From: a virus
Length of the DNA stretch: 43,019 bases
Virus genome (UHGV): UHGV-0172637
Direction: 5' to 3' (one strand)
This document shows positions 1,397 to 42,969 of the stretch, in pieces (within the stretch, counting starts at the first letter, position 1; each line of letters begins with the position of its first letter). A program made the position numbers and the translations under genes. Under the pieces are notes generated by a model that saw only the letters and a program-made list of their open reading frames with translations, made no database searches and was not told where the DNA came from.

Positions 1397-2575
1397 TTAG
1401 CTGGCTTTTATTTCTCCATGTGGAACGACAACCCAGTCGATATGGTTTTGCGTGTAAATTTTAGTTGATTTCGCATCGCTATGTGCCATTCGCCCTTGTG
1501 GATCGATACCCTGCTGATCGAAAAGATGCGCAGCCAGCGCTCTGATTTCGTGAAAGGTTGGTCTTTCGTCCATCGGTAGATTGTCGCATAAACCTAGCTT
1601 GTCACGCGTAGCTGAAAACGACCGACTCAAATAATCCGGCGCAACTTGAGTGGGATGTGAAACCTCTTTGCTGCGTTTAACCTGCCGTTCCGGGAGCCTG
1701 TGAACTATAAATGGACTGGCCACATTATCTCGGCTATCGTCAATTATTCGTTTCAACTCTTCCCCAATAGGTATTGCAACATGTGATGCCTCTTTTTTTT
1801 GCACCTTCTGCCTGTGGATATAGAGAGTCCCATATATGCCATTTTCTGGATGTTCTAACCAAACGCATCCGCATACTCCGTCTTTGGGTTCTTTGATGGA
1901 GTAGCGGATCCTTGATACCTCCAGTCGCGCGTGTGTTGTCTGCAATGCCAAATCCATCGCGCTCCGTAACCATGGTTCAGCTGCACGCCTGATAGCTTTA
2001 AAGTTATCAAGTGAGAGGCGCTGGCGTTTCTTCTCTTCTGTCCTACGCATTTTTTTACGGGTTGCCGGGTTATCGAACATTAGCGATTCATCGACCGCAT
2101 ACGAGAATAGTTTTTTAAGAAAGCTGACTTTCCTGTTTTGTACGTTTGCTGAAGCTTCGGCATGGTAGTGGTTTATATAGGCATTCACATGCTCCAGCTC
2201 AATATCGCAAGCTGGTGTGCTGATGAAGAATTCTTTCACTCTCAGAGCATCGTTGTTCCAATCGTCGAGTGTATTCTGTGAGGGGCGCTCATTCTCAATC
2301 GCCCGCTCCATAATATGATCTACGTGTTCAGCAAATGGTTTTGCTTCCCCCGTTACACCGCCAGATTCACGGACAAGTATTTCTACTGATGGTACATTTG
2401 CAGGCCTCATTCTGAGGTTGTATTCACGGGCTATAGCGATCGCTACAGCCCTGTCTTTACCGATATTCTTTTTTTTCCCAGTTATAAGCGTAAATTTATA
2501 AACGCCGCGATCTTTATCGAATATTAGATATTCGGGTAGATGGCGGTATTCTCTTTTTCTTGGCCTGGCTGCCAT
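1397..2575 (-). CDS. int: Tyrosine recombinase, lambda-type integrase
   Basis: 392 aa; C-terminal catalytic signature HEIRALAAHL...GRMAHSDAKSTKIY (His-x-x-Arg ... His ... Tyr), N-terminal arm-binding-like region; adjacent to att and xis. Confidence 0.92.
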   Translation of the reverse strand: MAARPRKREYRHLPEYLIFDKDRGVYKFTLITGKKKNIGKDRAVAIAIAREYNLRMRPANVPSVEILVRESGGVTGEAKPFAEHVDHIMERAIENERPSQNTLDDWNNDALRVKEFFISTPACDIELEHVNAYINHYHAEASANVQNRKVSFLKKLFSYAVDESLMFDNPATRKKMRRTEEKKRQRLSLDNFKAIRRAAEPWLRSAMDLALQTTHARLEVSRIRYSIKEPKDGVCGCVWLEHPENGIYGTLYIHRQKVQKKEASHVAIPIGEELKRIIDDSRDNVASPFIVHRLPERQVKRSKEVSHPTQVAPDYLSRSFSATRDKLGLCDNLPMDERPTFHEIRALAAHLFDQQGIDPQGRMAHSDAKSTKIYTQNHIDWVVVPHGEIKAS

Positions 2576-2876: not shown

Positions 2877-4115
2877 TTACTTTTTCATCACCTTTTCAGC
2901 AACACCAGCAATTGCCTCAAGTCCATCAAACATTGCTGGTATATTATTTTCATTGTTTTGTATTGGACTAAAAATAAGAGCATCAAAAGAGTCTAAAACT
3001 TTCTCAATAGCAATGTTATTTTTTCTTCTATATTCAACATACCCATCAATGAAAGCACATAAGCTGAGCCTTAGATCAATCTGCATAAGTTGAGTTCTTA
3101 AAGCCTTCGCTTCTAAATATGAAAGTCTGAAAAAATAAATAATTGCCATCTCAATAGTAATAAATGGGAATAGAATGAAGATCGCTGAATAATCTTTAGG
3201 ATATAAATCAGGGAAAGAAAAATGGATTATTACAGCAATCACAGGAGCAATGAATACAGTCCCAAATAAATTTTTATAATTCATTTCAGTTGTAGAAAGC
3301 TCTTTCTCTTTTTTTTCTTTTATTATGTTAAAACCAGAGCTTAACCCAACAAAATTATACTCTGATTTTAAATTTCTCACACGCTCCTCTAGTGCCTTAA
3401 TTTCATCCCTTGATTCATCCACGTATTTTAAATTAGCATCTGCTTCTAGTTTTCCATCTACAATAGCTTTTTTAATGTCATTATAATTATCAGATATTAA
3501 TGATATGGATGCTTTAGTGTCTTTGTTAATTTTATCAATAGCCAAATCTAAGTTGCTAGAAATTTCATCGAGAAACTTCCGTTTGTTTTCGTCGAGGTCT
3601 GATATAAAGTTTCTAGCATCAGTTAGTTTGTTACTGTTTAGTAACCACTTCATAAGTGAAATAGGTAGTTTGTCTCGAATCCATGAAAATTGGTATTTAC
3701 CTTCATTATCCTTGAAAGTGTTTTCTAATAATGTCAATTTGCTGTCTGTGATAAAGTTAGGCGTGATAATGGAACGAGTGCCTGTCCAATAATAGTACTC
3801 GTACAATACTCTTAACAAGGTTGACAAAAAATCAATCTTGTCTTTCTTGTAATCGTCAACTTGAAATTCCATGTGCAACAATATATTGTCTTGATTAAAA
3901 CCTGTATTCTCATCTAAATGTTGTGGGTTGTTATTTATTATTGATATAAAAGTCGACCATGCTGAGTCCAATGTAGTATAGAATAAAGATATGCTATTAT
4001 CTTTCTTTTTGGCGGATTTCTTGGACATTTCTTCAAACCTAATAAGATCTCTACTAATTATAGTATTTGTTTCCTTTATTGAATTAAGTATTTTATTATC
4101 GCTATATAGTCCCAT
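2877..4115 (-). CDS. Hypothetical membrane-anchored protein (coiled-coil region, two C-terminal TM helices), AT-rich accessory gene
   Basis: 412 aa; Lys/Asn/Ile-rich, visibly AT-rich DNA; hydrophobic segments LFGTVFIAPVIAVIIHF and YSAIFILFPFITIEMAIIYFF; heptad-like segment DESRDEIKALEERVRNLKSE. Confidence 0.6.
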   Translation of the reverse strand: MGLYSDNKILNSIKETNTIISRDLIRFEEMSKKSAKKKDNSISLFYTTLDSAWSTFISIINNNPQHLDENTGFNQDNILLHMEFQVDDYKKDKIDFLSTLLRVLYEYYYWTGTRSIITPNFITDSKLTLLENTFKDNEGKYQFSWIRDKLPISLMKWLLNSNKLTDARNFISDLDENKRKFLDEISSNLDLAIDKINKDTKASISLISDNYNDIKKAIVDGKLEADANLKYVDESRDEIKALEERVRNLKSEYNFVGLSSGFNIIKEKKEKELSTTEMNYKNLFGTVFIAPVIAVIIHFSFPDLYPKDYSAIFILFPFITIEMAIIYFFRLSYLEAKALRTQLMQIDLRLSLCAFIDGYVEYRRKNNIAIEKVLDSFDALIFSPIQNNENNIPAMFDGLEAIAGVAEKVMKK

Positions 4116-6085: not shown

Positions 6086-6732
6086 TTATAAATCCATTAT
6101 CACTTGTCTTACTAATCCGACCAAACGGCAGTTGCCGTTTACCTCGAGCATCCTGTAGTTGGGATTGAGAGGTACAAGGTATTTAAGCGGACCATCAATG
6201 ACGAATTTTTTTATAGTGGCTTCGTCACTTCCCATTAGCTGAGCAATGACAATTTTACCATTTGCTTGGCTGGCATCTCCAAAGTCAGGTTCTACGACGA
6301 CGAGAGAGCCCTCCGGGATGCTTGGTGCGCCATTTGGGTTAGTCATTGAGTCACCGCGGACTATTAGTGCAAAAGCGCTCTCTGAAACAGCTGCTGAAGT
6401 GTAAACCCAGTCTTGAATGTCTCGTTCCGTTATCGCACCACTATTGGCAGTCCATTCCCCGGCTTGCACCCACGTTAAAACGGGAACTGATCTAATTCCG
6501 AATCTCTGCTCTGGGTTCATTGTTGGCGGTTGTTGTTTCCCGTCATCCTTACCCTCCAGCAACCACTGCGGTGTCTTTTCAAGAGCAGCAGCAAGCGCCT
6601 GAAGGTTCTCACCGCCAGGTTTATAGTCACCAGATTCCCAGCCGGTGATCGTGACGCGGTTTACCCCGACAAGCTTTGCCAGGACAGATTGCGTCATCTT
6701 CAGCTCTTTTCGTCTGCTTCGGATTCGATCAT
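6086..6732 (-). CDS. Prophage repressor, cI/LexA-like (HTH + S24 peptidase domain)
   Basis: N-terminal XRE-type HTH (MTQSVLAKLVGVNRVTITGWESG), C-terminal S24 autopeptidase signature (RGDSM ... K); start taken at ATG 6732 rather than track start 6820. Confidence 0.9.
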
Positions 6733-6797
6733 TCATTTTCATGTAGGCAATCCTACCATTTTCTAATGTAGGAGTGCTTGACCATTTTATGTAAGAT
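6732..6797 (+). promoter_or_regulatory. Rightward early promoter/operator region (OR/pR-like) with three operator-like sites
   Basis: Sites TGTAGGCAATCCTACC (6732-6747), TGTAGGAGTGCTTGAC (6757-6772), TGTAAGATATCCTACT (6780-6795); TTGACC (6768-6773) - 18 nt - TACTAT (6792-6797) upstream of cro-like gene. Confidence 0.6.
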
Positions 6798-6841
6798 ATC
6801 CTACTATTTATGCACTGCATGACCTAACTCCAGAGGGAAAA

Positions 6842-7986: not shown

Positions 7987-8833
7987 ATTAACCGGCTACG
8001 TATGGGATGGTTGCGCGGCGTCGGGCATGAAGTTGTCTAGTGTCGCGATCATGGCTCGCCTCGCTGATTTCAGCAGCGATGAGGGAGTGTGCTGGCCGTC
8101 CATTGAAACTATTGCTCGCCAGCTTGGCGCAGGGCCGAGCACTATCAGAACGGCAATCGCAAAGCTTGAAAAAGATGGCTGGCTCACGCGTACACAGCGC
8201 CGTAATGGTAACCGTAATGCGTCGAACGTGTACCGCCTGAATGTGGCGAAACTTCAGGCTGCCGCATTTTCTCAACTGTCAGATTCTGACACGTCAAAAT
8301 CTGACGCATCAAATTTTGACGCCTCAAAAACTGACCCGTCGAAATCTGGCAAAAACGGCGGTTTTGACCCGTCAGAATCTGGCGGGGATCCGTCAGTAAA
8401 ATCAAAACAAGATCCACAAGTAACTTCAAAACCCTCTTGTCCGGTTGCGGCGCAACCAGACCCTGAAGTCGTGATTACTGATCAGGCAATTTTGGTTCTG
8501 ACCCATTTGAACCAGATCAGCGGATCCCGGTATCAGAAATCAAAAACATCCCTGGAGAACATCCGTGCCCGACTGCGTGAGGGATACAGCGTTGCAGACC
8601 TGCAACTTGTTATCGACCTGAAGCATGAGCACTGGCACGAGAACGACGAGCAGTACCAGTACATGCGCCCGGAAACGCTGTTCGGCCCGAAGAAATTCGA
8701 GAGCTATCTGCAAAGCGCTACCCGCTGGGAGCAGAAGGGACGGCCTAAACGTGCTGACTGGGGAGCGAAAAAGCGCGATGTGATGGCTTTTGGTCCGGTT
8801 GAAACAACGATTCCAGAGGGGTTCAGAGGATGA
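7976..8833 (+). CDS. Replication initiation protein (lambda O-like) with internal origin iterons
   Basis: N-terminal winged-helix region, low-complexity middle encoded by the iterons, conserved phage C-terminal domain. Confidence 0.75.
   Translation: MSTKLTGYVWDGCAASGMKLSSVAIMARLADFSSDEGVCWPSIETIARQLGAGPSTIRTAIAKLEKDGWLTRTQRRNGNRNASNVYRLNVAKLQAAAFSQLSDSDTSKSDASNFDASKTDPSKSGKNGGFDPSESGGDPSVKSKQDPQVTSKPSCPVAAQPDPEVVITDQAILVLTHLNQISGSRYQKSKTSLENIRARLREGYSVADLQLVIDLKHEHWHENDEQYQYMRPETLFGPKKFESYLQSATRWEQKGRPKRADWGAKKRDVMAFGPVETTIPEGFRG
8285..8402 (+). repeat. Origin iterons: about six direct repeats of ~15-18 bp (consensus TGACNCNTCAAAAWC) followed by an AT-rich stretch
   Basis: tctgacacgtcaaaatc / tgacgcatcaaatttt / tgacgcctcaaaaac / tgacccgtcgaaatc / ttgacccgtcagaatc / ccgtcagtaaaatc read directly in sequence. 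Confidence 0.75.
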
Positions 8834-9711
8834 CGTTAAACAAATATTGCCAGGCGCTGGTGGCACTACGTAGCCAACCAGCCCACGAATTGAAAGAAGT
8901 TGGCGATCAGTGGCGGACACCGGATCTGCTTTTTTGGGGTATCAACGCGCTATTTGGTCCATTAGTTCTGGACTTGTTTGCTGACGACGACAACGCGAAG
9001 TGCCCGGCATGGTACACCGCCGAAGATAACGCGCTGACACAGAACTGGTCTGAACGTCTGGATGAACTGGGCGGCGCGGCTTTTGCCAATCCTCCATATA
9101 GCCGCTCCCAGTATCACGACAAGCAGGCGATCACGGGTATGACACACATCATGAATCACACCATGGACATGCGTGAAAGAGGTGGTCGCTATATTTACCT
9201 GGTGAAGTCTGCCACAAGTGAAACATGGTGGCCGGAAGATGCCGATCACATCATGTTTATTCGTGGTCGTATTGGGTTCGATCTGCCTGTGTGGTTTGTA
9301 CCTGCTGACGAAAAACAGAAACCCACCAGCGCGTTTTTTGCCGGTGCCATAGCTGTATTCGATAAGTCGTGGCGGGGTGAGCGGTTCAGCTATATCAACC
9401 GCACAGAACTGGAGGAAAAAGGGCGGGCATTTATGGCTTTGGCTCAATTCGCCGTTGGTAAAGAGCAAACAATTGCAATGCAGGCAGCCAGGGAACCAGC
9501 AGCAACACCGGAAACTGAGTCACGAATCTGGCCTCTCGAGGTTGGTCTGGTGTTTAACCAGGTGGAAGGCGTTGATGTATTGAGCGAGGCCCAGCAGAAC
9601 AAACTGAAAGCCAACATCAATCAACTCTGGCTGGAACGAACGGCCACCAGCGAAATTATCACAATTGCGCGTGGTCTTGTTGGCAGCATGCAGGGGGTAA
9701 CCCATGCGTGA
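8830..9711 (+). CDS. Phage DNA N6-adenine methyltransferase (Dam-like) with C-terminal extension
   Basis: NPPY catalytic motif (FANPPYSRS); position in replication/nin region typical of phage orphan MTases. Confidence 0.75.
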   Translation: MTLNKYCQALVALRSQPAHELKEVGDQWRTPDLLFWGINALFGPLVLDLFADDDNAKCPAWYTAEDNALTQNWSERLDELGGAAFANPPYSRSQYHDKQAITGMTHIMNHTMDMRERGGRYIYLVKSATSETWWPEDADHIMFIRGRIGFDLPVWFVPADEKQKPTSAFFAGAIAVFDKSWRGERFSYINRTELEEKGRAFMALAQFAVGKEQTIAMQAAREPAATPETESRIWPLEVGLVFNQVEGVDVLSEAQQNKLKANINQLWLERTATSEIITIARGLVGSMQGVTHA

Positions 9712-11638
9712 GATTATCGTTGATAACTTTGCTGGTGGCGGTGGTGCATCAACGGGTATTGAACTGGCGATCGGACGCAGCGTGGATATTGCGATCAACC
9801 ACGACGAAAACGCCATTGCGATGCACAAGACGAACCACCCTGACACACTGCATTACTGTGAATCCGTATTTGACGTGGATCCGGTAGCCGCCACCGGCGG
9901 CAATCCTGTTGGCCTGGCATGGTTTAGCCCAGACTGCCGACACTTCTCAAAGGCCAAAGGCGCAAAGCCTGTGAAAAAAGAGATACGCGGTCTGGCCTGG
10001 ATCGTTCTGCGTTGGGCACTGGCGAAGCGACCGCGCGTGATGATGCTGGAGAACGTGGAAGAGTTTAAAACGTGGGGACCGCTGCTGGCCGATGAAATGC
10101 GTCCAGACCCTGCCCGCACTGGCGAAACATTCAATGCTTTTGTCGGCATGCTTTCCACTGGCATTCCTGCCGATCACCCGGCACTGGCGGAGGTCTGCGA
10201 ATTTCTTGCTATTGATCCTGGCAGCACGCAGGCCAAACAGCTGGTGGAAGGGCTTGGATATGATGTTGATTATCGCGAACTGCGCGCGTGTGATTACGGC
10301 GCGCCGACGATCCGCAAACGCTTCTTCATGGTTATGCGCTGCGATGGTTGCCCTATTCAGTGGCCTGTTGTAACCCATGGGGATCCCAAGTCACTGGAGG
10401 TGCAGAGCGGCAGGCTGATGCCATGGCGTACCGCTGCGGAATGTATCGACTGGAATGTTCCGGCTCTGTCCATCTTCGACCGCAAAAAACCGCTGGCGGA
10501 GAACACTCTGAAGCGGATCGCACGCGGCATACAGCGCTTTGTTATCGAAAGTGCGTCGCCGTTTATCGTGAAGTGCAACCACACGAGCTCAAAAAATGCG
10601 TATGACGCTTTTCGCGGACAGTCACTGAATGAGCCATTACAGACCATTACTAAAAAACTCGGCTACGCGTTAGCCGTTCCACACCTTACAAAATTCCGCA
10701 CTGGCGCAACCGGGCAGCCCGTTACCGAACCTGTTCCGACAGTAACCGCTGGCACGTCAAAACGCCCGGGCGGGAACGGGCATGCTCTCGGGATTGTTGA
10801 GGCTGCATTGACACCATTCCTGGCGGGTAATGGTGGTAGTGAATACCAGGCTAAACCGCGCCCGCTGAATAAACCTGCTCATACCATTCTGAAGCAATCC
10901 CGAGCCTGTCTTGTTGCGCCAGTGATAGCCCGCCAGTTTGGGGCCAGCGTCGGCCACCGTGCAGACGAACCGAGCGCAACCATCACCGCTGGTGGTGGAG
11001 GTAAATCTCAACTGGTAACGCCTACGCTGATTCAGATGGGTTATGGCGAACGACCTGGACAAGAACCGCGTGTGCTGCGACTGGATAACCCGCTGGGGAC
11101 CGTTACTGCAGGCGGAAATAAATTTGCGACGGTGAGCGCGTTCCTGGCGAAACACTACGGCGGTAACTATACGGGGCCGGGTGTCAGTATGGATGAACCC
11201 GCGCATTCAGTGACCACTGTCGACCATCATGCGGTAGTTGCCTCTCATCTGGTGAAACTGCGTGGAACATGCCGCGATGGGCAACGCCTTGATGTGCCAA
11301 TGCCAACAATCACTGCTGGTGGCCAACACGTGGGTGAGGTACGCACATTTCTCGAGACGTATTGCGGGGAAAGTGACGATGAATGGCTGGTAACGATCGA
11401 TGGGGTTAAATACCAGATCGTTGATATCGGAATGCGCATGTTGCAGCCGCATGAACTCTACAAAGCGCAGGGCTTCCCGGATGGTTACGTTATTGATCAG
11501 GACTACCGTGGAAATCGCTATGCAAAAGATAAGCAGGTAGCCCGCTGCGGTAATGCGGTACCACCACCATTCGCCAGGGCGCTGGTTGAGGCAAATCTTC
11601 CGGAACTGTGTGCAGTGCAACAGCAGGAGGTGGCATGA
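9704..11638 (+). CDS. DNA cytosine-5 methyltransferase, large form with repeated target-recognition-like segments
   Basis: Motif I FAGGGGAS, Cys motif SPDCRHFS, ENV motif MLENVEEF, RKRFFMV, C-terminal RCGNAV; five repeats of a P-x-P-T-[VI]-T-A-G-G-like segment in the variable region. Confidence 0.75.
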   Translation: MREIIVDNFAGGGGASTGIELAIGRSVDIAINHDENAIAMHKTNHPDTLHYCESVFDVDPVAATGGNPVGLAWFSPDCRHFSKAKGAKPVKKEIRGLAWIVLRWALAKRPRVMMLENVEEFKTWGPLLADEMRPDPARTGETFNAFVGMLSTGIPADHPALAEVCEFLAIDPGSTQAKQLVEGLGYDVDYRELRACDYGAPTIRKRFFMVMRCDGCPIQWPVVTHGDPKSLEVQSGRLMPWRTAAECIDWNVPALSIFDRKKPLAENTLKRIARGIQRFVIESASPFIVKCNHTSSKNAYDAFRGQSLNEPLQTITKKLGYALAVPHLTKFRTGATGQPVTEPVPTVTAGTSKRPGGNGHALGIVEAALTPFLAGNGGSEYQAKPRPLNKPAHTILKQSRACLVAPVIARQFGASVGHRADEPSATITAGGGGKSQLVTPTLIQMGYGERPGQEPRVLRLDNPLGTVTAGGNKFATVSAFLAKHYGGNYTGPGVSMDEPAHSVTTVDHHAVVASHLVKLRGTCRDGQRLDVPMPTITAGGQHVGEVRTFLETYCGESDDEWLVTIDGVKYQIVDIGMRMLQPHELYKAQGFPDGYVIDQDYRGNRYAKDKQVARCGNAVPPPFARALVEANLPELCAVQQQEVA

Positions 11639-14254: not shown

Positions 14255-14917
14255 ATGGATATAATTCATTTACTGGAAGTGCTTAATCCTCTCGAAAACG
14301 TTGTAACTGTCAAAATCGACAACGACAAAAACTTGTTTACGATGTTTGGCGATTTATTAATTACATTAGCCCCTGCAGTGATAGCGGGTATTGCGATGGT
14401 GGTTTCTTATAAGCAATTCAAAACGAGCTTACACAGGCAAAGTGAGCAATTTGAACTGGGAATAAAGCAACAAATTAATACATTAAAAATTAATACACAA
14501 CTTGCTACTGAAGTTGAATTGATGAAAGAGGATTGCAAGGCATTAAGAGAAACTTATGTTAGCTATTTAGATGTCACTTCATTACTTTATAGAAGCCAAT
14601 GCGATTTTAAAAATTATAGTGGTCAATTTGATGATAATGCAATTAAGAGTCGCAATATAGCACATGAAAATATAATGACCTACAGTAGTAAGTTTTTGCA
14701 AACTAGAATTTTATTATTCTCTTATCTTAATCTTGAAATTCCCGAAGAGAAAAAACTACAAGAATGTATTATTGCTATTGGTGACTGTGCATTTAATGGA
14801 GACGGAACTGGGAAAGATATTGGAAAGTTACAAGGTGATGGTGCGACTCTCTGCTTTGAGTTAATAAAGAGGAAACGCCAGGCAATCTTCAGTTTGGTAG
14901 AAACCATTACCGAATAA
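14255..14917 (+). CDS. Hypothetical single-pass membrane protein, AT-rich accessory gene
   Basis: 220 aa; TM helix LLITLAPAVIAGIAMVVSY; visibly AT-rich; RBS TAGGTGAG; sits between Q and the lysis genes. Confidence 0.6.
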   Translation: MDIIHLLEVLNPLENVVTVKIDNDKNLFTMFGDLLITLAPAVIAGIAMVVSYKQFKTSLHRQSEQFELGIKQQINTLKINTQLATEVELMKEDCKALRETYVSYLDVTSLLYRSQCDFKNYSGQFDDNAIKSRNIAHENIMTYSSKFLQTRILLFSYLNLEIPEEKKLQECIIAIGDCAFNGDGTGKDIGKLQGDGATLCFELIKRKRQAIFSLVETITE

Positions 14918-15093
14918 ATACTGAAATTTCTTGCCTCTGTTGATAGAGGTATCCCGCTGTGAAAATGGGCGGCTGGTGGGTGTTAGCGCACCCGGCCAGC
15001 CATCAGCTCATGCTTTCAGGTCACAAGCTAACCAAGGCCCACTGCTTTAGCGCAAAAGCAACGTGAGCCTATCAGAGTTACGCTTACTAATCT

Positions 15094-16146
15094 ATGAAAA
15101 ATACTGTAAAAATAAACAGTGTTGAGTTAATCAACGCTGACAGCCTGCATTACGTCGCCACCCTCCCGGATAACTCTATTGATCTGATAGTTACGGATCC
15201 GCCTTACTTCAAAGTGAAGCCCAACGGCTGGGACAACCAATGGAAGGGGGACGAGGACTACTTACGCTGGCTTGATAGCTGTCTGGCTGAGTATGCTCGC
15301 GTTCTTAAACCTGCTGACAGCATTTACCTGTTTTGTGGTCACCGACTGGCCTCAAATATAGAGATTATGATGCGTGCCCGGTTCAACGTTTTGAATCACA
15401 TCATTTGGGCAAAACCATCGGGTCGCTGGAATGGATGTAACAAAGAAAGCCTGCGTGCGTACTTTCCATCTACGGAACGGATTTTGTTTGCTGAGCTCTA
15501 TCTTGGGCCGTACACAGGTAAAGAGGATGTTTACGAAAGGAAAAGCACAGAGCTAAAGCAGCACATTATGACGCCGCTGATTGATTACTTCCGTAATGCC
15601 CGTGAATCACTGGGTGTCAGCTCGAAAGAAATAGCTGAGGCAACCGGAAAGAAAAACATGGCGTCACACTGGTTCGGTGCAAGCCAATGGCAACTACCAA
15701 ATGAAGTGGACTATAGAAAATTGCAGGAACTGTTCACTCGGATCGCTATCGATAAGCACATTCAGCAGAAGCTTGAACATCCTCACCACCAGCTGATAGC
15801 TACCTATCAGTCATTAAACCGCAAGTATTCAGAATTGCTGGAGGAATACAAAACCCTCCGGCGCTGCTTTTCTGTTTCCGCTCTTGTTCCGTATACCGAC
15901 GTATGGACGCATAAACCTGTTCAGTTTTATCCAGGCAAACATCCATGCGAAAAACCTGCCGACATGCTGAAGCAGATCATTAGCGCCAGCAGCAGGCCGG
16001 GGGATATTGTTGCCGATTTCTTTATGGGCTCTGGTTCAACTGTGAAAGCAGCAATAGAACTTGGCCGTCGGGCGATCGGCGTAGAACTGGAGGAAGACAG
16101 GTTTATACAGACCACCGAAGAGGTGGAAAAACTGAAAAAATCATAA
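15094..16146 (+). CDS. DNA methyltransferase, beta-class (N6-adenine or N4-cytosine)
   Basis: DPPY motif near N-terminus (LIVTDPPYF) and SAM-binding FFMGSGST near C-terminus (beta-class motif order); third MTase in the prophage. Confidence 0.7.
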   Translation: MKNTVKINSVELINADSLHYVATLPDNSIDLIVTDPPYFKVKPNGWDNQWKGDEDYLRWLDSCLAEYARVLKPADSIYLFCGHRLASNIEIMMRARFNVLNHIIWAKPSGRWNGCNKESLRAYFPSTERILFAELYLGPYTGKEDVYERKSTELKQHIMTPLIDYFRNARESLGVSSKEIAEATGKKNMASHWFGASQWQLPNEVDYRKLQELFTRIAIDKHIQQKLEHPHHQLIATYQSLNRKYSELLEEYKTLRRCFSVSALVPYTDVWTHKPVQFYPGKHPCEKPADMLKQIISASSRPGDIVADFFMGSGSTVKAAIELGRRAIGVELEEDRFIQTTEEVEKLKKS

Positions 16147-34491: not shown

Positions 34492-34545
34492 CCATGTTGT
34501 AATTACGCTATAGGTAATAAGCCTAATATCAAGGTGATAGGGTAT

Positions 34546-35262
34546 ATGAAGAAATTATATGTTTTGTTACTCAGTACAGTTTTGATTTCTGGGATGAGTC
34601 ACGCCGAAAATGGTTATATTCCTGTATTATATAATCTATCAACTATGTTCGATTTTAATCCTGTTAAAGGACCAGTGAAATCACTTAGTACTATAGTGGA
34701 GAGTAATGGCAAGGTTACTTATAAAGTATTATTAAAGCTAAATAAAAAAGGTTGTATTGAAAGCCTGAGCTTGGATAATATTTCAAATGGCTTTAAAACA
34801 GAACTTAATAATGATGGGGTAAATCTTGTAGGCAAGAGAGGTGAAAACCCGTACTTTGTTGGTCTAACGGAAGATTGTAATATTCTTTCTCAGAATGATA
34901 ATGGTGAGAAAAATACATTCTCTCTCACAGCAAGTGGAATGATTAAAGATACTTATTATTTAGGCCAAAAAATAGCAACGCATTTTTATGATGATAATGA
35001 TAATTTAATACGCTCTGAGTTTTATGGCTCAGATAAAATTTTGTCCAGTAATGAAGTTATTTATTTAGATAAAAATACTAAACCTCTTGACTACAAGATT
35101 ATAAACGAAAGTAGCTATGCACAAGGATATACTGCTACAACAACTTGTAAATACAACGCGAAACTTGTTCCAGAGTTATGTAATCTGATAATACAGAATG
35201 CAGGGAATCCGCTTCCTAAACCGACAGTAATTACAGCACATACAAGCGTGGAATTTTATTAA
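34546..35262 (+). CDS. Secreted hypothetical protein, AT-rich accessory gene between tail genes I and J
   Basis: 238 aa; Sec signal peptide MKKLYVLLLSTVLISGMSHA; Asn/Lys/Tyr-rich; ends in aromatic residue; own terminator. Confidence 0.65.
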   Translation: MKKLYVLLLSTVLISGMSHAENGYIPVLYNLSTMFDFNPVKGPVKSLSTIVESNGKVTYKVLLKLNKKGCIESLSLDNISNGFKTELNNDGVNLVGKRGENPYFVGLTEDCNILSQNDNGEKNTFSLTASGMIKDTYYLGQKIATHFYDDNDNLIRSEFYGSDKILSSNEVIYLDKNTKPLDYKIINESSYAQGYTATTTCKYNAKLVPELCNLIIQNAGNPLPKPTVITAHTSVEFY

Positions 35263-41165: not shown

Positions 41166-41894
41166 CTAATGTTTGTCCGATGATGTGAGTTGCTGCAAAC
41201 ATATATGTTCAGGATGCGGCCTGGATGCTATTTTTTTCCCTGAAGCGGAAAACATTACTACTGTACCTTTAACCCTGGTTTTAACATTCTCGAAATGCTC
41301 TGAAAGTATTTGTTTTAACCCTTCTTTGGAATCTTCGGTGTTTGAAAAGATGCCTTTCTGATTGTATATGCTCATCAGTTTTTTACCGAAGGTATTATGC
41401 ACAACGCCATCACCAACAATTGTGGCGCCATACAGAGTACCATCGTCAGTTAAGGCCTGCGCCGCATTGCGTATTACACAGGTTTTTGTCGATATATTTC
41501 CAGGCAGGCAGTGAAGAAGGTAAAACATTGAAATGGAATCAAATTGACCATGCAATGCTGCGGGATAAGGTTCAAAAACATCATGGCAAATTTTATGTTG
41601 AATTTTTGACTTTCCAGCCCTTGTTGATGCAGCGTTCAGGCTAGCTTCGTTCAAATCCATTAGAGATTTCAAACCACTTTCAGGTACGTGAGTAAGGTAA
41701 AACCCAGTTCCAACACCAATATCCAGATGGTTGTTACCTAAATGTTCCAGAAAGTGTGGAAGAAGGTATTCCTTTGTAGGGCATCCCCATGCAAGTCGAT
41801 TTGATACACCCAAAACCCACCAGTCATAAAGTTTTAGTGTGAATGGTGTGTAAACTTTAGCCCCATCATCTGTGTTTTTTTTCATTAATTTCAC
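41166..41894 (-). CDS. Class I SAM-dependent methyltransferase (small-molecule/protein type, not an obvious DNA MTase)
   Basis: Motif I LDIGVGTGFY; 242 aa; AT-rich 5' half. Confidence 0.6.
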   Translation of the reverse strand: MKLMKKNTDDGAKVYTPFTLKLYDWWVLGVSNRLAWGCPTKEYLLPHFLEHLGNNHLDIGVGTGFYLTHVPESGLKSLMDLNEASLNAASTRAGKSKIQHKICHDVFEPYPAALHGQFDSISMFYLLHCLPGNISTKTCVIRNAAQALTDDGTLYGATIVGDGVVHNTFGKKLMSIYNQKGIFSNTEDSKEGLKQILSEHFENVKTRVKGTVVMFSASGKKIASRPHPEHICLQQLTSSDKH

Positions 41895-42300: not shown

Positions 42301-42969
42301 TCATATTGGCGTTATTAGTTCGGCCCCCTGATTTTTCACATTCCCAACGGCACGCGTTACGGCGTGCCATATAAATTTATCAGCCGGCACAACACCGTCG
42401 GCTGCAATTTCCGCTGCTTCTTTCCCTCCAACATCCTGCCTCATCCATTCGCGCGCGGCTTCCGGTAGCAGTATCAGCGGTCGTCTGTCGTGAATATCAA
42501 CCAGTCCTTTGTCAGCTGCAGCTGTAACTATCAGGAAACCTTCTGCTTCATCTCCACGTTCAAATGGTGTGCTGCCAATCGCCGCCATAAATATCGGCTG
42601 ACCATCGGCCCGATGAATGAAGTAAGGCTGCTTCGTGTCACCTTCCTTTTTCCATTCGTACCATCCATCAGCAAAGCAAATTGCACGACCGTGCTGCCAG
42701 AGTGGTTTAAACATTCTGCTGGTGGCCGCAGTTTCAGATCGAGCATTAATTAGCGGTGGCTTATCCCACCATCCAGGGGCATATCCCCAAATGACAGGGT
42801 CAAGGTGCAGTTGTTCATCACGTTCGCTCAGAAGCAAAACTTTTGTTCCTGGCGCTACGTTGAATCTTCCGATGGGTTCTGGATCGTATGGAATGTCGCG
42901 TTCTGATTCATCAGCGAGCAGGGCAAGATAATCTTCACGCGTCATTGACTGTGCAAAGCGTCCACACAT
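42301..42969 (-). CDS. SOS response-associated peptidase (SRAP/YedK family)
   Basis: 222 aa beginning MCGRF (catalytic Cys2), conserved SRAP signature throughout. Confidence 0.85.
   Translation of the reverse strand: MCGRFAQSMTREDYLALLADESERDIPYDPEPIGRFNVAPGTKVLLLSERDEQLHLDPVIWGYAPGWWDKPPLINARSETAATSRMFKPLWQHGRAICFADGWYEWKKEGDTKQPYFIHRADGQPIFMAAIGSTPFERGDEAEGFLIVTAAADKGLVDIHDRRPLILLPEAAREWMRQDVGGKEAAEIAADGVVPADKFIWHAVTRAVGNVKNQGAELITPI

Follow-up and report, generated by a model that had tools for sequence, protein, structure and literature searches.

A lambdoid prophage gene for a C5-cytosine methyltransferase with seven tandem target-recognition-like units, a candidate multispecific anti-restriction enzyme

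The multispecific C5-cytosine DNA methyltransferases (MTases) known from a few Bacillus phages have two to five targets per enzyme. Temperate phages of Bacillus counter many restriction-modification systems by placing several target-recognition domains (TRDs) in a row within one polypeptide (reviewed in PMC12707154), and according to the published concept each of these domains confers its own target (PMC12707154, PMC8936443). The virus genome UHGV-0172637 (43,019 nucleotides (nt); the whole stretch analysed, hereafter the window) is a complete lambdoid prophage of the Salmonella type and encodes an enzyme which shares several features with the Bacillus phage MTases M.SPRI, M.Phi3TI/SPbeta MtbP, M.Rho11sI and M.H2I: a single catalytic core, an enlarged variable region between the conserved motifs VIII and IX, several tandem units with a core of the P/S-x-T-(L/I/V)-T type, and a phage-borne gene without a partner nuclease. 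It is a C5 MTase of 644 amino acids (aa) whose variable region carries seven units, and it is preceded directly by a Dam-family adenine MTase. Both open reading frames (ORFs) had been described before from the DNA sequence alone as a Dam-like enzyme with an NPPY motif and a 644-aa C5 MTase; the coordinates were exact and profile searches confirmed both assignments. The C5 MTase and its parts, apart from the array, are as follows.

9704-11638, plus strand: C5-cytosine DNA MTase, 644 aa, PF00145 with 73.4 bits
9704-10339, plus strand: catalytic core, aa 1-212, with motifs I, IV, VI and VIII
9728-9745: motif I, FAGGGG, aa 9-14
9926-9937: motif IV, SPDC, aa 75-78
10049-10057: motif VI, ENV, aa 116-118
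10307-10321: motif VIII, TIRKR, aa 202-206
10340-10612, plus strand: first part of the variable region (small-domain scaffold), aa 213-303, conserved across the family
11393-11638, plus strand: beta-hairpin, motif IX and motif X, PF00145 profile positions 269-321
11435-11488: motif IX, RMLQPHELYKAQGFPDGY, aa 578-595
11549-11569: motif X, GNAVPPP, aa 616-622

The score against PF00145 (C5 DNA methylase) is far above the gathering cut-off of 22 and places the protein in this family, but it stays under the stricter cut-off of the TIGR00675 superfamily (54.8 vs 100.65). Motifs I, IV, VI, VIII, IX and X are all present in canonical order, and none of 134 homologues departs from residues P76, C78, E116, N117, V118, R204 and R206. 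In motif IV, S-P-D-C, the catalytic Cys does not follow the Pro directly, as it does in the canonical P-C dipeptide, but is separated from it by an Asp. The whole subfamily uses this P-D-C variant, since the 134 homologues never vary at P76 and C78, and D77 is conserved to at least 90% among them. The protein was modelled twice with AlphaFold2, with a diverse alignment of 134 sequences and with a clean but shallow alignment of 73 close homologues. In the 134-sequence run the predicted local distance difference test (pLDDT) was mostly above 90 at aa 1-280 (except for a dip at aa ~81-90) and at aa 580-630; along the scaffold it amounted to 96-98 at aa 211-240, 83-90 at aa 241-280 and 51-73 at aa 281-300. 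The model has the fold of a C5 MTase, including the large domain of the class I S-adenosylmethionine (SAM)-dependent MTases, and Foldseek matched it to 3g7u, DNMT1/MET1, M.HaeIII and M.HhaI (probability 1.00). The best sequence match in the PDB was also 3g7u (E 5e-7), whereas M.HhaI was not matched by sequence. 3g7u, a putative DNA modification MTase of prophage CP-933R, is thus the closest solved relative by both sequence and fold and is likewise prophage-encoded in Enterobacteriaceae, but it has only 376 aa, a canonical PPC in motif IV and no repeat array. The 644-aa protein is probably an active C5-cytosine DNA MTase. In the close homologues P0013, P0031 and P0035, 21-24 aa (e.g. PSKPDLSEALMGDFIGPVY) are inserted between motifs VI and VII, after aa 128 (columns ~129-175 of alignment A1), which is a second, independent site of length variation and lies in the catalytic domain.

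The variable region comprises aa 213-577. Behind the scaffold it consists of seven gapless units (aa 304-563) of ~37 aa each (about 33-47 aa), given here with their type at 50% identity and with their score in a leave-one-out test, in which the six remaining units yielded a hidden Markov model (HMM) and the real score was compared with 4000 shuffles per unit.

10613-10708, plus strand: u1, aa 304-335, type A, LNEPLQTITKK; 21.5 bits, 0/4000
10709-10849, plus strand: u2, aa 336-382, type B, VTEPVPTVTAGT, with a loop insertion of 13 aa; 13.3 bits, 0/4000
10850-10948, plus strand: u3, aa 383-415, type C, LNKPAHTILKQSRACLVAP; 6.6 bits, 7/4000
10949-11068, plus strand: u4, aa 416-455, type D, ADEPSATITAGGGG; 15.7 bits, 0/4000
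11069-11176, plus strand: u5, aa 456-491, type E, LDNPLGTVTAGG...AFLAKHYGG; 25.3 bits, 0/4000
11177-11275, plus strand: u6, aa 492-524, type F, MDEPAHSVTTVDHHAVVA; 0/4000
11276-11392, plus strand: u7, aa 525-563, type G, LDVPMPTITAGG; 20.8 bits, 0/4000

In six units the real score was beyond the reach of all shuffles; in u3 it was reached by seven of 4000. The units follow the consensus G..(L)(D/N)EPxxT(I/V)TAGG...hV.P.L...G, do not overlap and each contain a P..T(I/V/L) core; the region is therefore an enlarged variable region with several tandem TRD-like units. The original prediction had counted five repeats. All five strings are present (aa 343, 423, 464, 499 and 532), but the number is seven, two copies having been overlooked (LNEPLQTITKK, aa 308-318, and LNKPAHTILKQ, aa 388-398).

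The suggestion that the array arose by serial duplication turned out to be misleading. The units are mutually divergent, each of the seven belongs to a different 50%-identity type, and at the DNA level only one repeat is left in the array, 19 nt with 89% identity (10977-10995 and 11304-11322). Because this single repeat is all that survives, the duplications must be old, and together with the seven different types it rules out recent serial duplication. The wider family looks like a product of cassette shuffling rather than of local duplication. The two copies of the 19-nt repeat encode the TITAGG cores of u4 and u7 and are 327 nt (109 codons) apart and in frame; they could be a substrate for an in-frame deletion of u4-u6.

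The C5 gene was compared with its orthologue in Escherichia phage Flotzy (L009), with which it shares ~80% nt identity, so that synonymous sites are saturated. The ratio of nonsynonymous to synonymous substitutions (dN/dS) was 0.054 for the catalytic core, 0.087 for the scaffold (aa 213-303), 0.036 for the motif IX-X region and 0.022 for the seven-unit array, which makes the array the most strongly constrained part of the protein. Single units had a dN/dS of at most 0.024 in the five cases that could be computed; u1 and u7 were too saturated at synonymous sites. The array has retained 94.6% aa identity to phage Flotzy at 80% nt identity, and u4 is even identical in all aa at 81% nt identity. 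These values bear on one of the outcomes named beforehand as refuting the original prediction, namely that the repeats are a structural linker. A flexible linker, or a decaying duplication without a function of its own, would agree with the composition of the array, which is rich in Gly, Pro and Thr, and with the low AlphaFold2 confidence: pLDDT was 30-58 across aa 300-560 in the 134-sequence run and about 20 in the 73-sequence run. Since the array has the lowest dN/dS in the protein, a linker or pseudo-domain is ruled out, and we give this explanation next to no credence. Further, phages of Pseudomonas, Vibrio, Myxococcus, Nostoc and other hosts have conserved unit types in common; a search with no more than the array (aa 304-563) gave homologues in 95 sequenced phages, whose hosts include Pseudomonas, Vibrio, Aeromonas, Rhizobium, Burkholderia, Ralstonia, Myxococcus, Nostoc and Roseburia. 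Structure prediction of the variable region, which had been proposed as a check, thus gave a catalytic fold but no usable model of the array, and the two runs neither support nor refute the idea of independent recognition modules.

Sequences of four classical multispecific enzymes (SPR, rho11s, H2 and phi3T) were used for comparison with the units. Their variable regions contain two to four motifs of the (S)PT(L/I)T type and a shared C-terminal unit, (D/G)EPAFTVNTIDRHGVA. Two of the seven units resemble known recognition domains. u6 (DEPAHSVTTVDHHAVVA) aligns without gaps over 17 residues with this shared unit, the last recognition unit of these enzymes, as DEPAFTVNTIDRHGVAI in rho11s/SPR (BLOSUM62 51/45; 0/20000 shuffles), and u3 aligns with the recognition core of M.HaeIII, aa 228-249 as verified against PDB 1DCT (BLOSUM62 39; 3/20000 shuffles). 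The unit HMM and hhalign matches fall on the PT(L/I)T and EPAFTV sites of the Bacillus enzymes, at 1-5 bits and P 0.014-0.04, respectively; these values are insufficient, and homology of the whole repeat to the Bacillus enzymes is not claimed. The linker between u4 and u5, GQEPRV...TVTAGG, had a superficial likeness to loops I and II of M.HhaI (GQGERI...TLSAYGG) which was not significant (6103/20000 and 17906/20000 shuffles). The M.HaeIII core itself matched rho11s with weak significance (304/20000), and against SPR and phi3T its best-scoring window lay at motif IV, not at EPAFTV. With this match weak or misplaced, GGCC is not predicted as the target of u3 or u6 and is a lead only. A phmmer search of SPR fragments against the PDB aligned the catalytic motifs and never the recognition domains.

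The enzyme nevertheless differs from the Bacillus enzymes in several respects. SPR matches M.HhaI with E 4e-44, whereas the best solved relative of the window protein is 3g7u; motif IV is PDC instead of PCQ; and there are seven units, with up to 12 in relatives, against two to four motif-bearing ones. The units of the window protein are also shorter and form a regular repeat, and its family is very large and found in phages of many phyla, unlike the Bacillus enzymes. Close kinship of its catalytic core with the SPR/phi3T lineage was not found, and from these comparisons it appears to be analogous to the Bacillus phage enzymes rather than a member of their lineage. With M.HaeIII (1DCT) and M.HhaI it shares the fold, the order of motifs I-X and a T-L/T-V recognition-loop motif before motif IX, but these two have chains of 324-327 aa with a single loop in a variable region of ~100 aa, compared to seven loops in ~365 aa.

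The resemblance of u3 and u6 to enzymes with a defined specificity of 4 bp or longer bears on a further explanation, in which the units do not read separate targets but collectively give a short or degenerate recognition, for instance a context of two to three bases. The enzyme would then be a relaxed ("semi-specific") cytosine counterpart of the non-specific adenine methylases of phages and prophages such as M.EcoGII. It is an established strategy of mobile elements to encode orphan methylases whose sites are highly degenerate and which are expressed solely when the element leaves the cell (PMC12707154), and the Gly-rich loops (TAGGGG) could make few base-specific contacts. However, relaxed recognition neither needs nor explains many sharply different and strongly conserved loop types, and the low dN/dS of the five computable units as well as the conservation of loop positions within types are at odds with it. 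We regard it as quite improbable.

The array changes by whole units among close homologues. Among the 90%-identity clusters the nearest one, with 97% identity and 1124 members, belongs to Salmonella enterica, and homologues with at least 78% identity have lengths of 570, 605, 626, 644, 659, 679 and 691-700 aa. Alignment showed that these differences are whole-unit insertions and deletions. Homologues which are 96-99% identical in the aligned residues lack u3 (P0062 and P0077), the loop of u5 (605-aa homologues such as P0025) or both, and other close homologues lack u2 (P0072) or have one extra unit after u6 (P0002 and P0021). The junctions of three of the four deletion types and of all three insertions are in register, 9-14 residues past the anchor Thr in the strand after the loop, and create hybrids, e.g. 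of the u4 loop and the u5 strand; the fourth deletion (P0102), which removes u1 and the loop of u2, is out of register. Nine architectures were found among 121 close homologues, and the natural deletion and insertion variants, mostly in register, retain the reading frame.

When the full-length protein, and hence also its catalytic core, served as HMMER query against 1.84 billion cluster representatives, 2567 50%-identity clusters matched at E<1e-30. Unit statistics were obtained with the unit HMM for the best 150 diverse representatives of these clusters, to which all of the following numbers refer. The proteins carry one to 12 units, 147 of the 150 at least three, and the length of the variable region rises with the number of units (32.5 aa x units + 162, r = 0.83). 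Grouping of the 1866 units at 50% identity gave 255 types, and types recur at different positions with many different neighbours. Type E (u5) was counted 78 times, next to 40 different types on its left and 43 on its right, and is the most widespread type at interior, i.e. non-terminal, positions. Types G and H, on the other hand, are almost always the last two units, G (u7) being the usual penultimate one. Within the unit a Pro (column 8) and a Thr (column 11) are almost invariant, and columns 13-19, directly after the Thr, are the most variable between types and conserved within a type, an observation that is partly circular since the types are defined by sequence. Anchoring on T250-L251 of M.HhaI suggests that these positions correspond to recognition loop II. 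Type H, a further terminal unit in the majority of family members, has the form EPxHTVxxKDRFGLVTV, lies just before motif IX and accounts for 94 unit occurrences; the window protein has no type H, its loop being replaced by CGESDDEWLVTIDG (aa 564-577, nt 11393-11434), and its array ends with type G.

These statistics can also be read in favour of an enzyme that is monospecific or nearly so. The seven loop-strand units would then pack into one beta-rich scaffold, a small domain built from repeats, in which a single target is read by one of the units, presumably the last one, or by a composite surface, and the remaining units give stability, DNA clamping, processivity or partner binding. The near-constant terminal types G and H, the commonness of type E and the finding that fewer than three units occur in only three representatives, most of the shortest ones having three or more, would agree with such a domain; most in-register insertions and deletions would also be tolerable for a structurally equivalent repeat, and no structure or methylome contradicts it. 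It is nonetheless unlikely in our view. 255 distinct types that are individually conserved and reshuffled are not normal for structural repeats, the unit content differs between near-identical enzymes, which points to selection on content and not on a fixed fold, the type-specific residues cluster in the loop past the invariant Thr, and the known recognition cores are resembled by the internal units u3 and u6 and not by the terminal one.

In sum of these data, multispecific anti-restriction methylation, as in the Bacillus phages but by a different C5 subfamily, is the best-supported explanation because one catalytic core is combined with seven constrained, cassette-like and TRD-like units; we consider it probable, with a good deal of room left for doubt. 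The catalytic core (motifs I-VIII and IX-X) would be served by seven modules of ~37 aa, each built on a P-x-x-T-(I/V/L) loop and the following beta-strand, the core of the TRDs of C5 MTases. Different modules, singly or in small groups, would dock on the catalytic core and read different short DNA sequences, so that one polypeptide could methylate several unrelated cytosine motifs. In-register recombination would add, remove and hybridise modules and thereby change the repertoire.

Several observations weigh against multispecificity. Motif IV has P-D-C in place of P-C, confidence is low throughout the array in both AlphaFold2 runs, individual matches to a known recognition domain are significant for u3 and u6 but for none of the other five units, and the unit HMM and hhalign reach the Bacillus enzymes only with the marginal values given above. 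Scans of each unit alone against Pfam, which has no model for the unit, gave no match, and methylation data for the window protein or any family member were not found in the literature. The almost invariably terminal position of G and H, the commonness of type E and the scarcity of members with fewer than three units raise the suspicion that some units are framework; some may be constant, and there may be far fewer specificities than seven. The units had been called target-recognition units in the original prediction; their position between motifs VIII and IX, the P..T(I/V/L) core, the constraint, the turnover of whole units and the resemblance of u3 and u6 agree with this, and the five units without a significant match do not.

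Multispecific MTases as such are known; new are the different C5 subfamily, the more numerous and more regular modules and the very large family with a broad range of hosts. A search of the full-text literature, which did not cover REBASE, found no description of multi-unit C5 MTase arrays outside Bacillus phages or in Gram-negative prophages, and homologues of the window protein are simply named "DNA cytosine methyltransferase" in databases. As a tentative extension, to which we give somewhat less than even chances, the homologues may form a "hyper-multispecific" family of temperate-phage C5 methylases with arrays of up to ~12 exchangeable recognition cassettes out of a pool of hundreds of types; in-register recombination would rewire their repertoire in the course of an arms race against restriction systems, and the number of targets per enzyme would be far above the two to five of the Bacillus enzymes; this family would span phages of Enterobacteriaceae, Pseudomonas, Vibrio, Burkholderia, Rhizobium, Myxococcus, Nostoc and even Firmicutes. 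If the modules are independent recognition domains, temperate phages, among them prophages of Salmonella, E. coli, Klebsiella and Pseudomonas, would commonly counter restriction by multispecific methylation, which would not be peculiar to a few phages of Bacillus. This would have consequences for the degree to which restriction systems curb phage spread, transduction and phage therapy, and would explain 5-methylcytosine signals that are largely missed by PacBio-based methylome surveys (PMC8936443). Hundreds of natural recognition cassettes with defined boundaries, together with natural deletion and hybrid variants, would then be at hand; how a short peptide module programmes the specificity of a C5 MTase would become directly testable, and the cassettes would be useful for engineering targeted methylation.

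The setting of the gene in the prophage fits an anti-restriction enzyme made during lytic growth. The landmarks and the other two MTases of the window are:

1397-2575, minus strand: integrase
6086-6820, minus strand: cI-like repressor
8830-9711, plus strand: phage Dam-family N6-adenine DNA MTase, 293 aa, PF05869 (E 2.3e-45) and TIGR01712
13731-14147: Q antiterminator gene
15094-16146, plus strand: third DNA MTase, 350 aa, beta-class N6/N4 type, PF01555 (E 4.5e-44) and PADLOC MTase_II (7.3e-141)

The order of genes is cI/cro/cII-like, replication protein (Phg_2220_C), Dam, C5 MTase, RusA, Ant, DUF968, Q and lysis, and downstream of Q follow lysis, head and tail genes. The stop of the replication gene overlaps with the start of Dam (ATGA, 8830-8833), the stop of Dam with the start of the C5 gene by 8 nt (ATGcgTGA, 9704-9711) and the stop of the C5 gene with the start of RusA (ATGA, 11635-11638). 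The two MTase genes are located in the early rightward (PR-type) operon, and the C5 gene is translationally coupled to the replication gene, Dam and RusA; therefore, its expression should be off in the lysogen and on during lytic replication. The exact C5 protein is indexed in 501 blocks of public assemblies; its context was read in 24 contigs, and the above order of genes recurs in all four places shown. A nuclease gene near the pair was found neither in profile scans of the window nor in these four places. Because every neighbour is a standard lambdoid early gene, Dam and C5 MTase are orphan MTases, encoded by the phage without a cognate restriction enzyme. In the multispecific explanation, the pair would be repressed in the lysogen and made together with the replication proteins after induction, and progeny DNA would be methylated before packaging, which would shield it from several Type II restriction systems in the host infected next.

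The Dam-family protein matched TIGR01712 (phage N-6-adenine-methyltransferase) over its full length with 204.9 bits, against an equivalog cut-off of 97, and has the (D/N)PPY motif as NPPY at aa 87-90 (nt 9088-9099); it thus belongs to the phage Dam N6-adenine MTases (TIGR01712/PF05869). Its target is presumably GATC, as assumed from the family. Unlike the phage Dam family it has a C-terminal extension of ~95 aa (aa ~200-293, nt 9430-9711) past the Pfam Dam domain, which matches a separate PHROG (phrog_16025) with no known function. Sibling prophages have a longer version of Dam, ~440 aa compared to 293, upstream of a C5 MTase that is identical or orthologous (L006 4686-6008, L008 4686-6008 and, in phage Flotzy, 349-1683). 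The additional N-terminal domain is annotated as phosphoadenosine phosphosulfate (PAPS) reductase (phrog_33262, a profile of 495 aa), and the longer protein is thus a PAPS-reductase-like domain fused to a DNA adenine methylase.

A third MTase had been placed at 15094 in the window, and this is confirmed by the match to PF01555 and a DPPY motif near the N-terminus (aa 35-38, nt 15196-15207), which make it a member of the beta-class N6/N4 MTases. It is encoded in a two-gene island of low GC content (14255-16146, GC 0.38-0.47) between the Q antiterminator and holin genes, which is absent from the sibling prophages L006-L008. The ORF directly upstream of it (220 aa) had no match in Pfam, PHROG or PADLOC. 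The orphan status that had been proposed for the tandem pair holds for Dam and C5 MTase; for the third enzyme, which may have a partner, it is less certain because of this unannotatable neighbour. Judged by eye, the 220-aa protein has an apparently hydrophobic, possibly transmembrane segment.

Some genes elsewhere in the window deserve mention. An ORF of 412 aa (2877-4115, minus strand) in a stretch of 31% GC adjoining the integrase matches only phrog_9373 (unknown function), has no match in Pfam or PADLOC and is a candidate cargo or defence gene. At the right end, a gene for a class I SAM-dependent methyltransferase (Methyltransf_12, which is no family of DNA MTases) and one for an SOS response associated peptidase (SRAP) are encoded at 41166-41894 (minus strand) and 42301-42969 (minus strand); they are either phage cargo or flanking host genes. 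Finally, an ORF of the UPF0257 family (34534-35262, plus strand) lies in a low-GC stretch (0.39) amid the tail genes and looks like a moron in the tail module.

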